Source: a virus
Taxonomy: Duplodnaviria > Heunggongvirae > Uroviricota > Caudoviricetes
Strand: one strand, 5' to 3'
Length of the DNA: 5,325 nucleotides
Virus record (IMG/VR): IMGVR_UViG_2660238230_000001
Span: 1-5,325 of that record
In this document: one piece after another, positions 1 through 5,325 of the stretch
Layout of the letters: each line of letters starts with the position of its first letter
Numbering within the stretch: the first letter of the stretch is position 1
Notes under the pieces: model-generated
Told to the model about the DNA's origin: nothing
Seen by the model: the letters and a program-made list of their open reading frames with translations, nothing else
Databases searched by the model: none
Translations under genes and position numbers: made by a program

Positions 1-90
1 AGCCAGAGTAAATCCTGCTCACAAAAATTCGCCGGAGCGAACTCAACAAAATGCAGCGTATGTCCGGCAAAGGGGAGGGAGGTATGCGTA

Positions 91-219
91 GCCGGCTGCA
101 TTATTGGCCCGTGGGGGCTGCGACTGGTGACCGATGCCGAATCTATTCTGCACTTTGCCGAGATTGGGGTGGTGCTGATGCTGTTTATTATCGGCCTCGA
201 ACTCGATCCACAAAGGCTC
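91..219 (+). pseudogene. kefC: Internal fragment of kefC-like glutathione-regulated K+/H+ antiporter (N-terminal transmembrane region only, no start or stop)
   Basis: Plus-strand translation [43 protein letters not shown] matches the conserved N-terminal membrane segment of enterobacterial KefC as I recall it. Similarity stops abruptly on both sides (upstream reads ...GREVCV, downstream reads SRSSKRL). The six-frame ORF 127..585 fuses this fragment to antisense of phage gene R and is not a real gene. Confidence 0.6.
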
Positions 220-251
220 AGCCGGTCTTCAAAACGCTTAAACTCATTCAT
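220..251 (-). pseudogene. S: Probable 5' remnant (about 10 codons, [10 protein letters not shown]...) of P2-like tail completion / virion morphogenesis gene S, truncated at the junction with the kefC fragment
   Basis: ATG at 251-249 overlaps the last codon and stop of R (minus-strand ATGAATGA arrangement), the expected position for S in P2-like late operons. The frame stays open to the window edge only because it runs antisense through unrelated sequence. The S protein sequence itself was not recognised. Confidence 0.3.
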
Positions 252-711
252 CCCACTTGCTCACCAGTTCGCCATTGATATAAAGCTCCACCGGGCGGGT
301 GACCGGCTCCGGCGGCGGAGGTTCCGGGATATTCTTCACATGCAGCGCGCCGTCAACCTCACTGACCAGCGTGCGCTCGGTCAGCATCAGGCTGATGCTG
401 ATATCAAAGCTGCTGTCATTGTTGATGTCTGCATAAAACGTGAAGCCCTTTTTCTGGCCTTCGTCGGTGGTCATGATGTCGGGCTGATTTTCCCGCAGCC
501 ACGCCAGCACCGGCACAATGAGCAGGTCAAAATCACCGGTAAAGTCGGTCACAATCACATTGAGCGTGTAACGCTTTTCGAATGACATAGACGTCGCCAG
601 TGTGGAGGCAATACTCCCGTTATCCACGAATATCCGCAGCATCTCGGGACTGGTTTTCAGCACCGTGACGGCGTCAGTCAGCGCCCTGCGCAGGCTGTCG
701 GGTTTGAGCAT
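244..711 (-). CDS. R: P2-like tail completion protein R
   Basis: 155 aa ORF ([19 protein letters not shown]...[14 protein letters not shown]) matching my recollection of the phage P2 gpR family in length and sequence. ATG at 711-709 with AGGA about 8 nt upstream. Position immediately after lysB/lysC as in P2. Confidence 0.8.
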
Positions 712-964
712 CGTTTTCGTCCTGACAGTGTTTAATCATTTTTACCTGGCTGGCACAGCGTGCCAGCGCGTTCTCAAGCTGCCGGATATCAGCACTTAAA
801 TCGCCGTTCGTCTGCGGGTCACTGCCCGGCATCGGGCAAAGGCTCACTTTCGGGCAGGCGTTGGCGACAATCACTGGCGTCAGTGCAGGTCGGACGCTGG
901 TGCAACCGGCGCACAGCATCAGGCAGGTCAGCGCCATACCAGCGGCGAAAATCCTCGTTTTCAT
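674..964 (-). CDS. lysC: o-spanin (Rz1-like outer-membrane lipoprotein), P2 LysC-like
   Basis: 96 aa ORF starting MKTRIFAAGMALTCLMLCAGC: signal peptide with lipobox-like LCAG|C. Starts inside lysB in a different frame and extends about 145 nt beyond the lysB stop (overlapped spanin architecture). GAGG about 9 nt upstream of ATG at 964-962. Its 3' end overlaps the R start by 38 nt. Confidence 0.7.
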   Translation of the reverse strand: MKTRIFAAGMALTCLMLCAGCTSVRPALTPVIVANACPKVSLCPMPGSDPQTNGDLSADIRQLENALARCASQVKMIKHCQDENDAQTRQPAQGAD

Positions 965-1244
965 TCAGTAACCTCGTGATGGTTTTCTCGCGCTGTGCTT
1001 CACGTTTCGCGGCGTTCTCCAGTTCCTGACGCAGTGCCACCTGCGCCAGCTCGTTTTTGTCTGCCCTGGTAAGGGCAACATGAAGCTGATTTTTCAGCAT
1101 GGTGATGGTCGTCTGCTGACCGCTGGCGACGTTGTTCGCCCTGTCCAGCGAGGCGCGCAGGCTGGCGTTTTCATGCTTCGCCAGAAACAGACCTGTCACC
1201 GCCAGCGATAACAACACGACCAGCACAATCATCAGCTTTGACAT
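819..1244 (-). CDS. lysB: i-spanin (Rz-like inner-membrane spanin component), P2 LysB-like
   Basis: 141 aa ORF with an N-terminal transmembrane helix (MSKLMIVLVVLLSLAVTGLFLA) followed by a charged, coiled-coil-like periplasmic region. Contains the lysC start in another frame. ATG at 1244-1242 with a GAGGGG run upstream. Confidence 0.7.
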   Translation of the reverse strand: MSKLMIVLVVLLSLAVTGLFLAKHENASLRASLDRANNVASGQQTTITMLKNQLHVALTRADKNELAQVALRQELENAAKREAQREKTITRLLNENEDFRRWYGADLPDAVRRLHQRPTCTDASDCRQRLPESEPLPDAGQ

Positions 1245-1657
1245 GGTTCCCGCCCCTCAAGACGCTGACGACAGGCCGTACGTATCAGCCGGAAAAACAG
1301 CGACGCCACAAGATAAATCAGCGCGGTAAAAATCCACCCGGCAGCGACCAGCGAGATAAACGTCGCCACCATCACCACCAGACCCACCGCCCGTCTGCAC
1401 CACGTCACCGGCTGCAAAAACAGCGACGTGACAATCTTCACAGCCAGCGATTCCGGCGGCAGCTCCCGCCCGTAGCGTTCCAGCACATACTCAGTGGCAT
1501 ACACCCCGACACCACCGGCAACCGCACAGATAACCGTCGCCAGAATCGCCCAGGCGGCGACAAAACTGACGGCCACGCTCTGCGGGTAAATCAGGGACAG
1601 TGCCAGCATCAGCGCCAGCGACACGTTCAGCATCAGTGAAAGGGATAATTTCTTCAT
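1232..1657 (-). CDS. lysA: Multi-pass membrane protein, P2 LysA-like lysis timing / regulatory protein
   Basis: 141 aa hydrophobic ORF with several predicted TM segments, located between endolysin K and lysB as in P2. ATG at 1657-1655 with GGAG upstream. 3' end overlaps the lysB start by 13 nt. Confidence 0.6.
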   Translation of the reverse strand: MKKLSLSLMLNVSLALMLALSLIYPQSVAVSFVAAWAILATVICAVAGGVGVYATEYVLERYGRELPPESLAVKIVTSLFLQPVTWCRRAVGLVVMVATFISLVAAGWIFTALIYLVASLFFRLIRTACRQRLEGREPCQS

Positions 1658-1671
1658 GGTGTTTACTCCGT

Positions 1672-2169
1672 TTAAGCCGGTACGCCGCCAGCGGTACGCC
1701 AGACGGTGACCAGTTTTTCCAGTGAATGCTCACGCTGACCGTAACCGGCACCCGGCAGGGACGCCCAGATATTGCGACAGCGTGAAATGGCGCGCTCAAT
1801 GCGTCCCGCCCGGATGTCATCCAGCGCACCGCGTTCGCGGATCAACTGAATGGCGAGTCTGTCCTGTGACAACGGACTGAAATCCGGCAGGGCAAGCTGT
1901 TTGCGGTAATGCGGCCAGAACAGGTAAAGCTGCTGATAGCGACCGGAGGCCGTGGATTTTTCACCGCGACGGTTAAACACCTTCGCCGGTCGGCCATGCG
2001 CGAACGGGTGGTCACTGTAGTCGGTGAAAATTTCCGGCTTCCCGTCCAGTCCGGTGACTATCACGTCATAGCCACGGTTTTTCGTCAGCGGATGGTTCGC
2101 CGTCCCTTCGGACACGGCCAGCATGTCGAGAAAGGCGGCGATATTCTGATGCGTGTTAATTACCGGCAT
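1672..2169 (-). CDS. K: Endolysin, lambda R / P2 K-type lytic transglycosylase (phage lysozyme family)
   Basis: 165 aa ORF with the hallmark motifs FLDML..SEGT, GYDVIV, FTDYSDHP, GRYQ, FSP.SQD and IWASLPGAGYGQ.EH shared with lambda R endolysin. Its ATG (2169-2167) overlaps the holin stop by 1 nt (TAATG on the minus strand). Confidence 0.9.
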   Translation of the reverse strand: MPVINTHQNIAAFLDMLAVSEGTANHPLTKNRGYDVIVTGLDGKPEIFTDYSDHPFAHGRPAKVFNRRGEKSTASGRYQQLYLFWPHYRKQLALPDFSPLSQDRLAIQLIRERGALDDIRAGRIERAISRCRNIWASLPGAGYGQREHSLEKLVTVWRTAGGVPA

Positions 2170-2450
2170 TACGGTTTCCCCCTGCCCTTAAAGCGGCGCT
2201 GAATGGCAATCTCAATCACCTGATAACCGGCGATACCCAGCATGGAGCCGATGCCGCACACCGCAGGCAATGACAGGTCAGGAAACTGCACCAGAACAAC
2301 ACCGGCAACCATCGAGACAAAACCACCGAGCAACATGCGTCCGATAAACAGACGCGGGGTGATGGGTTCACCACCGGCAAGCACCTTGCCGACAACAATC
2401 AGCACCCCAATCATGAAAAGCGACAGGACGCTTTTTTCTTCTGCTGTCAT
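2169..2450 (-). CDS. Y: Holin, P2 Y-like
   Basis: 93 aa small membrane protein with hydrophobic segments and a basic C-terminus (RRFKGRGKP), immediately upstream of and translationally coupled to the endolysin. GGGAG upstream of ATG at 2450-2448. Confidence 0.75.
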   Translation of the reverse strand: MTAEEKSVLSLFMIGVLIVVGKVLAGGEPITPRLFIGRMLLGGFVSMVAGVVLVQFPDLSLPAVCGIGSMLGIAGYQVIEIAIQRRFKGRGKP

Positions 2451-2453
2451 GCG

Positions 2454-2657
2454 TTACTCCCACAGATTGACAGTTTCAGCCACGGGCGCGGTCTGAACGT
2501 CGGGCAGTTCGACGGCGGTGCCGTGCGGCAGCACCGCGCCCAGTTCAGCCAGTCCCGGATTTGCGGCGAGCACGGCTTCGACCACGCCCTCAGTGCGCCC
2601 GTAATACCGGACACAAATGGCGTCGAGCGTGTCGCCCTGTAGCGCAAAGGTCTTCAT
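2454..2657 (-). CDS. X: P2-like tail protein X
   Basis: The six-frame ORF 2454..2726 has a plausible internal start giving a 67 aa product (MKTFALQGDTLDAICVRYYGRTEGVV...VNLWE), matching my recollection of the P2 gpX family. Its ATG (2657-2655) overlaps the L stop by 1 nt (TGATG on the minus strand). Confidence 0.75.
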   Translation of the reverse strand: MKTFALQGDTLDAICVRYYGRTEGVVEAVLAANPGLAELGAVLPHGTAVELPDVQTAPVAETVNLWE

Positions 2658-3166
2658 CAGATTTGACTCACGATGCAGCGTGGCTTGTCCTGGATGCGCG
2701 CCACTGCCCAGCGCATATCCCGCCACAGCTCATCAATGGTGCTGTCAATGCTGTCGGCCTTCTTGTCGCCTTTCGCACTGGCATCCACGCCGCGATAACG
2801 CTCATAAAGCGACGCGGTCGCCATCGCACACACGGCGCGCTCGTAGTAAAAAACTTTGATGCTTTCACCGTCGATGTCGTCCGCCGGGACGTCAGCCAGA
2901 CACGTAAAACCGGCGGCAATTTTCTGTTCGCGGTACTCGTACAGCTCCGCATTCGTTTCAGCCATGCCTGACTTGATGGCCTCACGCAGACGGGCAGGGG
3001 CGACGGTCTGCTCAAGGCGCATACGTTCCCGGACGCGCTTCGGGTCGATATCGGGAAAAAAGAACGTGTTTTTAATCACCGGCTCGTCGCCTGCCGGTTG
3101 CGGGATGACCACCGTACCCTCACCGGACACGGGAGCCTCCTTTCGCGGAATAATCAGCGTCATCAT
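2657..3166 (-). CDS. L: P2-like head completion/stabilization protein L
   Basis: The six-frame ORF 2657..3226 is trimmed to the ATG at 3166-3164, which has GAGG 6-9 nt upstream. This gives 169 aa (MMTLIIPRKEAPVSGEGTVVIP...PRCIVSQI), consistent with the P2 gpL family and position (M-L-X order). Confidence 0.8.
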   Translation of the reverse strand: MMTLIIPRKEAPVSGEGTVVIPQPAGDEPVIKNTFFFPDIDPKRVRERMRLEQTVAPARLREAIKSGMAETNAELYEYREQKIAAGFTCLADVPADDIDGESIKVFYYERAVCAMATASLYERYRGVDASAKGDKKADSIDSTIDELWRDMRWAVARIQDKPRCIVSQI

Positions 3167-3265
3167 GACTACCTCTGAAAAGTCGGGCGGTGGACGCCGG
3201 TACAGTGTCAGGTGATTCACCCTCACTGACCGGCGTGCCGCCCTGGCGCGGGGCGCATTCGGTTG

Positions 3266-4009
3266 TTAACTGGCTTTCTTTTTCGGGCGTCCACGTTTTG
3301 CCGGTGTCACGCTCCGGGTCTTACGCGGGGCGCAGGTGGCCGCTTTTGGCTGTGGCTCCGGCTTCGGTTTCAGCTCCCGCTCCAGTCGTTCAATCTCTTT
3401 TTTGACGCCTGCCTGACAGTCGAGCTGTGTCGCACGTTGCAGGTGCGCCAGCGCCCCTGCGGCATCACCAGCGTCACGCAGAAACAGACCGGTGATTTTG
3501 TGCAGCTTTGCGCGCACTTCATCAGGCATGTCAGCCGTGGCGGTCAGTTCGAGGGTGTCCGTCAGCAGGCGGGGATCCACAGACTCACCGGCAGCGTGGG
3601 CGCGCATGGCCGCGAGCGCCACCTCCTCGGTGAACATGTACGGCGGGGTGCGACGGTGTTTACCCGGCATGGTCAGACCGTACTTCAGGGCATAACGGGC
3701 AATCTCCAGCGCACCGGCAATATCGCCGGTATCCAGACGCCACAGCATGACCGTCATCAGAATGTCATCCTGTGCACCTTTGCCCTGCTCCAGCACGCCG
3801 TTCACCCACGGCAACCAGAACGGCAGCAGTTCGCGTTTTTTCGCGGCCTTCAGCTCTTTTGAATAAATTGCTTTCAGTGTGCGCTGGTCTGCGGCCAGCT
3901 TGACCAGCATCTGCTCATAGACAGTTGCATGTCGCAGCGGGGCGGCTTCCCGCTGCGCGGTCATCGCTGCCGAGACCCGCATCATGTGGCGCTGTGCGGG
4001 ACTCGTCAT
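3266..4009 (-). CDS. M: P2-like terminase small (endonuclease) subunit M
   Basis: 247 aa ORF with a basic C-terminal tail (KRGRPKKKAS), matching the P2 gpM family in size, sequence and position upstream of L. GGGAG about 8 nt upstream of ATG at 4009-4007, inside the end of the preceding N-like frame. Confidence 0.85.
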   Translation of the reverse strand: MTSPAQRHMMRVSAAMTAQREAAPLRHATVYEQMLVKLAADQRTLKAIYSKELKAAKKRELLPFWLPWVNGVLEQGKGAQDDILMTVMLWRLDTGDIAGALEIARYALKYGLTMPGKHRRTPPYMFTEEVALAAMRAHAAGESVDPRLLTDTLELTATADMPDEVRAKLHKITGLFLRDAGDAAGALAHLQRATQLDCQAGVKKEIERLERELKPKPEPQPKAATCAPRKTRSVTPAKRGRPKKKAS

Positions 4010-4012
4010 CGG

Positions 4013-4100
4013 TTACGCTCCCGGCTCTGCGGTCGCTTTAGCCGGTGTGGAGAAATCACCGACCTTAATTTTTTCCACCAGACAACCGGCGGCGTAGTCC
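4013..4100 (-). pseudogene. N: 3'-terminal remnant (about 28 codons plus stop) of a P2-like major capsid gene N, truncated at the junction with 16S rDNA
   Basis: Open minus-strand frame ...DYAAGCLVEKIKVGDFSTPAKATAEPGA ending at TAA (4015-4013), 3 nt before the M start, which is the expected position for N. Assigned by position; the peptide itself is not verified from memory. Confidence 0.4.
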
Positions 4101-4246
4101 TCCTCCATCAGGCAGTTTCCCAGACATTACTCACCCGTCCGCCACTCGTCAGCGAAGCAGCAAGCTGCTTCCTGTTACCGTTCGACTTGCATGTGTTAGG
4201 CCTGCCGCCAGCGTTCAATCTGAGCCATGATCAAACTCTTCAATTT
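4101..4246 (-). rRNA. rrs: 16S rRNA gene, 5' end only (about the first 146 nt), truncated
   Basis: Minus-strand sequence from 4246 reads AAATTGAAGAGTTTGATCATGGCTCAGATTGAACGCTGGCGGCAGGCCTAACACATGCAAGTCGAACGG...GGGAAACTGCCTGATGGAGG, the canonical enterobacterial 16S 5' end. Similarity stops near 4100, where GGGGATAACTACTGG is expected but phage sequence follows. Confidence 0.9.
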
Positions 4247-4377
4247 AAAAGTTTGATGCTCAAAGAATTAAACTTCGTAATGAATTACGTGTTCACTCTT
4301 GAGACTTGGTATTCATTTTTCGTCTTGCGACGTTAAGAATCCGTATCTTCGAGTGCCCACACAGATTGTCTGATAAA

Positions 4378-4390
4378 TTGTTAAAGAGCA
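4378..4390 (-). promoter_or_regulatory. rrn leader boxA antitermination element
   Basis: Minus-strand TGCTCTTTAACAA, the conserved rrn boxA motif, within the leader between the P2 promoter and the mature 16S 5' end. Confidence 0.7.
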
Positions 4391-4427
4391 GTGCCGCTTC
4401 GCTTTTTCTCAGCGGCGCGGGGTGTGC

Positions 4428-4455
4428 ATAATACGCTTTCCCGCTACAGAGTCAA
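4428..4455 (-). promoter_or_regulatory. rRNA operon P2 promoter (sigma70)
   Basis: Minus-strand -35 TTGACT (4455-4450) and -10 TATTAT (4433-4428) with a 16 nt spacer, matching the rrnB P2 context GCTTGACTCTGTAGCGGGAA.GCGTATTATGC. Confidence 0.75.
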
Positions 4456-4545
4456 GCATTTTTTTGCTTTTCTCTGTTGAGATTCTCAGGAGAACCCCGC
4501 TGACCCGGCGGCGTGTTTGCCGTTGTTCCGTGTCAGTGGTGGCGC

Positions 4546-4573
4546 ATTATAGGGAGTTATTCCGGCCTGACAA
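4546..4573 (-). promoter_or_regulatory. rRNA operon P1 promoter (sigma70)
   Basis: Minus-strand -35 TTGTCA (4573-4568) and -10 TATAAT (4551-4546) with a 16 nt spacer, followed by the GCGC discriminator. Matches rrnB P1 (CTCTTGTCAGGCCGGAATAACTCCCTATAATGCGCCACC). Confidence 0.8.
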
Positions 4574-4574
4574 G

Positions 4575-4598
4575 AGGAAATTTAAAATAATTTTCTGA
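4575..4598 (-). promoter_or_regulatory. UP element of rrn P1
   Basis: Minus-strand A/T-rich TCAGAAAATTATTTTAAATTTCCT immediately upstream of the P1 -35 hexamer, matching the classic rrnB P1 UP element. Confidence 0.7.
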
Positions 4599-4618
4599 CC
4601 GCGCAACATTCAACCAAA

Positions 4619-4711
4619 TCAACCTAAAACTGCCAGTTTTTCGAGCGTTCCGAAGCCGTAACGCTGTAAAACGGGCAATAATTGTTCAGCTTCTGTCGTC
4701 ATTGCCAGCAC
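4619..4711 (-). pseudogene. murI: 3' end (about 30 codons plus stop) of glutamate racemase gene murI
   Basis: Minus-strand translation ...[28 protein letters not shown] matches the MurI C-terminus, and murI is the natural upstream neighbour of rrsB. Similarity to MurI is lost above about 4711, so the six-frame ORF 4619..4915 is chimeric. Confidence 0.65.
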
Positions 4712-4820
4712 CAGCCCTTTTTTCAGATTGAACTCTTCGGCTTTAATGCCCATCTTGCGCTCTTTCAACTGCCCGGCTCGAGTTACAATCCCTACGCCAA
4801 TCAGCGCCACCAGAACGCCG

Positions 4821-4985
4821 CAGACCTTCGTTGTTGGCAAAGTTCGCCAGTACAATCTGCCCCAGCAGTTGGGTTTGTTCGTTGGAATAGTTGCCGACAA
4901 CCGTACCGTCATCATTGATTTGATAACTCACCAGATCGCCCGGTTTGTAGCCGTTCTGGGTGGTTGCCACAATATTGTTAGCGCC
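4821..4985 (-). pseudogene. flgE: Internal fragment (about 55 codons) of flagellar hook protein gene flgE
   Basis: Minus-strand translation [55 protein letters not shown] matches the C-proximal conserved region of enterobacterial FlgE. It has no start and no native C-terminus; flanking sequence on both sides is unrelated to FlgE. Confidence 0.65.
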
Positions 4986-5211
4986 TAGAGCAAACTGAAG
5001 GGGTAACCTAAGCCGAGGTTAATTAATAGCGACTGTAAAAAGTAGAACGCAGTCCACGTGCTAAATACCCGGCTACGGGTAACAAGCGATTCTTTGAGGG
5101 TTAAATTCATATGCCACTATCGTAACAAACGCCATGTGCTTACCCGGGCGTCAAGGGTCAATCCCTGCAAGAGTGCGTGAAGAGGGCACGCCGCACAGCC
5201 CGTCACGCTAC

Positions 5212-5325
5212 CTATTCGTCGATGATTGACTCGAATCCGCCATAGATCATTCGCTTGCCGTCAAACGGCATGGACTCGCCGAACTCTTTCATCCGTGGGT
5301 CCGACATCATCTTTTGATTAGCAGC
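5212..5325 (-). CDS. 3' end of an unidentified ORF running off the window edge (...AANQKMMSDPRMKEFGESMPFDGKRMIYGGFESIIDE*)
   Basis: Open minus-strand frame of 37 codons ending at TAG (5214-5212) with enterobacterial-like codon usage. Product not recognised. May be another fragment rather than an intact gene. Confidence 0.3.
   Translation of the reverse strand, partial: AANQKMMSDPRMKEFGESMPFDGKRMIYGGFESIIDE

Follow-up and report, generated by a model that had tools for sequence, protein, structure and literature searches.

A 98-residue open reading frame made of murI, rhaT and flgE pieces in an Escherichia coli contig that is very probably an artefactual chimera

We analysed a 5,325-bp stretch of DNA (hereafter the window), which is the entire contig CDRN01001828.1 of assembly GCA_000944855.1 in reversed orientation. 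As judged by its anatomy and its uniqueness, the window is very probably a chimeric contig that lacks biological continuity, its parts having been joined by an artefact: local blastn against fetched reference loci tiled all 5,325 bases, leaving none unexplained, with eight segments that are 98.2–100% identical to eight separate and non-adjacent E. coli loci. The 98-aa open reading frame (ORF) called on this chimera at 4619..4915, on the minus strand, is almost certainly no gene but an artefact of sequencing or assembly; because the contig is chimeric from end to end (eight segments, seven junctions), an artefact is far more likely here than a biological gene fusion.

A rhaT fragment between the murI and flgE pieces

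The first-pass annotation, made from the letters alone, had recognised the tail of murI and, from 4821 onwards in a different frame, similarity to FlgE, the two being separated by an open stretch of about 36 codons with E. coli-like codon usage that matched neither protein. Megablast of 4700–4830 against E. coli genomes totalling 28 Gb identified this stretch as rhaT (4704–4820, 100% identity over 117 nt, E = 1e-53), and the same sequence was found, in one copy each, in 5,334 of the 5,426 complete E. coli genomes. The piece is identical to nt 417–533 (residues 139–178) of the E. coli gene for the L-rhamnose/H+ symporter (PF06379), and since it lies in the genuine RhaT frame, the stretch looked open and E. 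coli-like in its codons. Profile searches agreed with this assignment (Pfam PF06379, E = 3.2e-17; NCBIfam NF010021, E = 3.1e-19): residues 31–73 of the 98-aa product correspond to RhaT profile positions 138–180 of 344 and are followed by a weak match to the extreme end of the glutamate racemase profile, the RhaT scores lying far under the full-length cut-offs since only a fragment is present. Whereas rhaT of E. coli is a full gene of 344 codons, the window carries 39 of them, a piece lacking start, stop and promoter; the rhaSR-rhaT-sodA neighbourhood is absent around it, and pieces of murI and flgE flank it instead.

The make-up of the ORF was established by combining the gene call and the Pfam and NCBIfam matches with a codon-level mapping of the window pieces against annotated references:

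4619..4915, minus strand: the 98-aa ORF, artefactual by our reading
4821–4985, minus strand: internal fragment of flgE, codons 271–325, 100% identity, in a frame different from that of murI and rhaT; provides ORF residues 1–31 (31 codons, out of frame)
Junction codon between flgE and rhaT: ORF residue 32
4704–4820, minus strand: internal fragment of rhaT, 100% identity, CDS nt 417–533, codons 139–178, true RhaT frame; provides ORF residues 33–71 (RhaT 140–178)
4619–4707, minus strand: 3' end of murI including the stop, CDS nt 770–858, codon 257 (partial) to codon 285 plus stop; provides ORF residues 71–98 (MurI 258–285, true frame)

The suspicion that the ORF fuses at least two unrelated pieces was thus borne out, with three found, flgE out of frame and rhaT and murI in frame. 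The points at which identity drops along 4619–4915 could be mapped precisely: murI runs up to 4707, rhaT from 4704 to 4820 and flgE from exactly 4821, as had been proposed, at 100% identity to 4985. The murI 3' end is likewise real, although its boundary, previously placed at 4711, is moved to 4707 by the codon mapping. The matches to all three genes go far above what chance would yield.

The frames of murI and rhaT coincide (codon-top coordinate modulo 3 equal to 1 in both), which allowed the gene caller to extend an ORF across the two, and flgE is offset from them (modulo 3 equal to 2 versus 1). The in-frame continuity of murI and rhaT would be a one-in-three coincidence, and the caller would have started at the murI stop and extended the ORF backwards across rhaT and into out-of-frame flgE until it reached the first ATG, at 4915. 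Judging from this composition, we would expect the product to be neither expressed nor functional.

A genuine fusion or mosaic gene would be expected to recur, and we found no such recurrence. Exact look-up of the 98-aa product returned a single contig, CDRN01001828.1 itself, and the protein forms a one-member cluster among approximately 15 billion proteins. No single protein was found to run continuously through 4619–4915, the outcome that would have spoken against a composite ORF: there is no continuous homologue, and none of the 5,426 complete E. coli genomes covers at least 80% of 4600–5000 in one place. Nor do the junctions recur in relatives or lie in a normal chromosomal context.

Eight segments from eight loci

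The complete tiling of the window is as follows, with positions in E. coli MG1655:

1..91, minus strand: entD fragment, CDS nt 8–98, codons 3–33, cut by the contig end; MG1655 609,982–610,072 (+)
89..218, plus strand: internal kefC fragment, codons 36–79; from position 91 it is 100% identical to MG1655 47,877–48,004 (+)
219..4107, minus strand: P2-type prophage late-gene block; MG1655 position not applicable
4098–4707: a single piece comprising the 16S 5' end, the rrnB leader and the murI 3' end; MG1655 4,166,807–4,166,197 (-)
4098..4246, minus strand, within this piece: the first 149 nt of 16S rRNA (rrsB copy)
4247..4618, minus strand, within this piece: intergenic region between murI and rrsB, with the rrnB promoters and leader; contiguous with both neighbours as in normal E. 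coli
4704–4820: rhaT piece; MG1655 4,099,993–4,100,109 (+)
4821–4985: flgE piece; MG1655 1,133,548–1,133,384 (-)
4986..5186, minus strand: opgE codons 1–42 (4986–5110) with 76 nt of upstream intergenic sequence; MG1655 852,473–852,671 (+)
5182..5325, minus strand: ybaA 3' end, codons 81–117 plus stop (5212–5325), with 30 nt of downstream sequence, cut by the contig end; MG1655 477,055–476,912 (-)

In MG1655 the positions of the seven chromosomal pieces (about 91–610 nt) range from 48 kb to 4.17 Mb, and their orientations are mixed; the one P2-type prophage piece spans 3.9 kb. Four interior pieces are only about 115–200 nt long, and six of the eight are at or under about 200 nt. Both ends of the window are formed by unrelated fragments, so the contig has no normal chromosomal anchoring. 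Rfam gave no match in the window at the gathering threshold, the 16S piece being only 149 nt long.

The segments are clean copies, and where they differ from the references the differences are mostly at third codon positions or are shared natural polymorphisms. At 5059, 5146 and 5163 the opgE piece departs from all of the top-scoring complete E. coli genomes (98.5% identity at best), one of these differences being a first-codon-position change, Pro18 to Thr, and the entD piece carries a second-codon-position change at window position 37; these differences are either rare alleles or errors. The rrsB-murI piece (4098–4707) is 97.1% identical to K-12 MG1655 versus 99.8% to strains such as S43, and the kefC (91–218) and flgE (4821–4985) pieces are 100% identical to K-12. 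Such uneven identity could reflect ordinary allele sharing in one wild strain or could hint at mixed sources.

The phage block (219–4107, minus strand) carries gpR, lysC/lysB, lysA, the endolysin, the holin, gpX, gpL and gpM, together with the final ~95 nt of gpN, the capsid gene. Its identity is 98.1% with Peduovirus P2 and 99.8% with intact prophages of other E. coli assemblies (L010/L013), rising in the latter comparison to 100% over 302–4036. Its relatives elsewhere in E. coli are intact and have the normal P2 gene order; the block in the window is cut inside genes at both ends, and its kefC and 16S neighbours therefore do not mark an attachment site. Differences from the closest intact relatives are confined to 283–301 and 4037–4052, within ~85 nt of the segment ends. 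We considered end damage or sequencing error and rejected it, as other P2-like prophages carry these bases too, and most of them are third codon positions; from the sequence comparison, the end-clustered variants look like normal mosaicism. Insertion of a mobile element (IS, transposon or cassette) was also ruled out for the window: there are no repeats at the junctions and no recombinase gene, and every base belongs to housekeeping or P2 late genes.

Junctions and how they may have arisen

We aligned both parents across each junction; the exact overlap varies with the parental allele assumed, which is why ranges are given for some:

entD/kefC: overlap 1–3 nt
kefC/P2: overlap 1 nt
P2/16S, at 4098–4107: overlap 0–2 nt, within an imperfectly similar patch of 10 nt
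murI/rhaT, at 4704..4707: overlap 4 nt, GCCA, common to both parents
rhaT/flgE, at 4820..4821: abutting, overlap 0 nt
flgE/opgE: overlap 0 nt
opgE/ybaA: overlap 0–2 nt

Summed over the seven junctions the overlap amounts to 6–12 nt, versus about 4.7 nt expected by chance. Enrichment of microhomology was entertained at first (sum of 12, p about 0.01–0.04) and abandoned once better-matching parent alleles brought the sum down to as little as 6. The breakpoints disregard gene and codon boundaries, falling in entD codon 3, kefC codons 36 and 79, 16S nt 149, murI codon 257, rhaT codons 139 and 178, flgE codons 271 and 325 and opgE codon 42. None of the seven junctions contains a linker, an adapter or untemplated sequence, inspection by eye revealed no common restriction-site-like motif at the breakpoints, and in the window we found no direct or inverted repeats flanking the pieces or coinciding with the junctions.

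Within the patch at 4098–4107 the phage reads TCTTCCACCA, 16S reads TCCCCCTCCA and the window reads TCCTCCTCCA, base 4100 agreeing with 16S and base 4101 with the phage; the simplest explanation would be that the actual phage parent carried a synonymous GAA>GAG polymorphism. Two further ORFs owe their existence to junctions: a 152-aa ORF at 127–585 (plus strand), which begins in the kefC fragment and continues into antisense gpR, and a 31-aa ORF at 4013–4108 (minus strand, 'MEEDYAAG...'), whose ATG is contributed by 16S at the P2/16S joint and is fused to the last codons of the capsid gene.

The junctions have no counterpart in any independent genome or sample searched. None is contiguous in any of the 5,426 complete E. 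coli genomes, no plasmid carries 4560–5325 contiguously, exact 30-mers spanning the junctions are absent from the IMG/VR viral collection and from JGI metagenome contigs, and for the two junctions tested they are also absent from species-representative genomes. The complete tiling and the exact breakpoints are direct observations, as are the finding that the junctions are unique and the lack of linkers and repeats. That the joining was artefactual, and which artefact was responsible, we infer from the anatomy and uniqueness of the contig.

In the simplest account, one ordinary E. coli genome would have supplied all eight fragments, and these would have been linked end to end with their order and orientation left to chance, the rhaT piece (4704–4820) landing between the murI-rrsB piece and the flgE piece. 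Overlaps of 0–4 nt fit blunt joining and are shorter than a k-mer or overlap misjoin would require. Sheared or degraded fragments may have been co-ligated in vitro before sequencing and then amplified or cloned, a route to which we give about an even chance; seven junctions in one contig would be accounted for if one chimeric molecule had been amplified or cloned. Alternatively, short contigs or reads may have been concatenated or scaffolded in silico without gap characters; the pieces at or under ~200 nt correspond in length to isolated reads or to contigs below a size threshold, and we regard this route as a realistic option that falls short of probable. Polymerase template switching is an unlikely source of the joins. 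Chimeric or misjoined contigs of draft assemblies resemble the window in decomposing into near-identical, non-adjacent loci of one genome, placed in random order and orientation, with intragenic junctions that are blunt or overlap at chance level and are confined to one record. The window differs from the usual case in the density of its junctions, seven in 5.3 kb, and a contig of this kind needs either a chimeric molecule that was sequenced deeply, by long reads or from a clone, or concatenation by software.

Judging by the contig number, the assembly comprises over 1,800 contigs, and draft assemblies with thousands of contigs often hold misjoins. An assembler error at shared repeats, that is, a de Bruijn or overlap mistake on a common k-mer, is nevertheless hardly credible as the origin of the window: the imperfect similarity of the 10-nt patch at the P2/16S junction (4098–4107) is what speaks for it, and against it stand an exact shared sequence of 0–4 nt, versus k of roughly 20 nt or more, and the lack of repeats connecting the partner loci.

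Multiple displacement amplification (MDA) with phi29 polymerase, in which displaced 3' ends are mis-primed on other strands and extended, stringing loci together, is quite unlikely to have produced the window. Like the window, phi29 MDA chimeras consist of non-adjacent genomic segments that were physically joined and then amplified and assembled (PMC9984789); MDA amplifies the physical chimeras that it makes, these assemble at high depth, and some junctions of the window do have overlaps of 1–4 nt. MDA chimeras, however, form within one molecule, where they usually connect sites <10 kb apart, mostly in inverted orientation, and their overlaps peak at 5–8 nt (PMC9984789). Partners in the window lie 66 kb to about 3–4 Mb apart, their orientation is mixed, and the overlaps are 0–4 nt, with three junctions at 0 nt.

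Finally, the structure might be a genuine in vivo patchwork, its fragments set free by DNA breakage, stitched together by end-joining or serial template switching and kept as an extra insertion or an episome; in detail, a chromothripsis-like event would have combined short chromosome fragments and a piece of a P2-type prophage by ligase-dependent end-joining. We consider this very improbable. The pieces are clean, error-free copies, the length of the contig implies the possible existence of a physical molecule, which an in vivo structure would also be, and the 0–4 nt overlaps, which reportedly fall within the range seen for alternative end-joining (A-EJ) in E. coli, are equally compatible with cellular end-joining. 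Products of E. coli alternative end-joining or MMBIR share with the window multi-segment junctions, microhomology of 0–4 nt and lack of site specificity; the window differs in having neither independent occurrence nor chromosomal anchoring, the structure being absent from the complete genomes and from every other collection searched. Moreover, 5.3 kb would have to contain seven illegitimate joins, five of which fall in a span of 1.2 kb, and the loci joined are spread across the whole chromosome. murI is an essential gene, and all the pieces would consequently have to be extra copies. Short-read assemblers, furthermore, normally break at repeats of 3.9 kb and 0.6 kb and do not thread through them. 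The known bacterial rearrangements at microhomology consist of single deletions or of junctions in local amplicons, and a run of eight fragments from across a genome is not known among them. Were the in vivo reading correct, the murI-rhaT-flgE ORF would be a real fusion, though accidental and probably silent, and the window would be a striking case of multi-fragment end-joining in a bacterium; nothing that we found favours that reading.

Implications for gene-fusion and prophage-site inference

The main value of the artefactual-chimera reading lies in quality control: contig CDRN01001828.1 is flagged as chimeric, and assembly GCA_000944855.1 as a whole is probably unreliable for inferring gene fusions or prophage sites. 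The P2 late genes beside kefC and rrsB represent an apparent adjacency and not an attachment site. ORFs that span the junctions, namely the 98-aa MurI/RhaT/FlgE product, the 152-aa KefC/antisense-gpR ORF and the one that starts from the artificial ATG at the P2/16S joint, should be counted neither as novel proteins nor as fused genes or junctions between phage and host.
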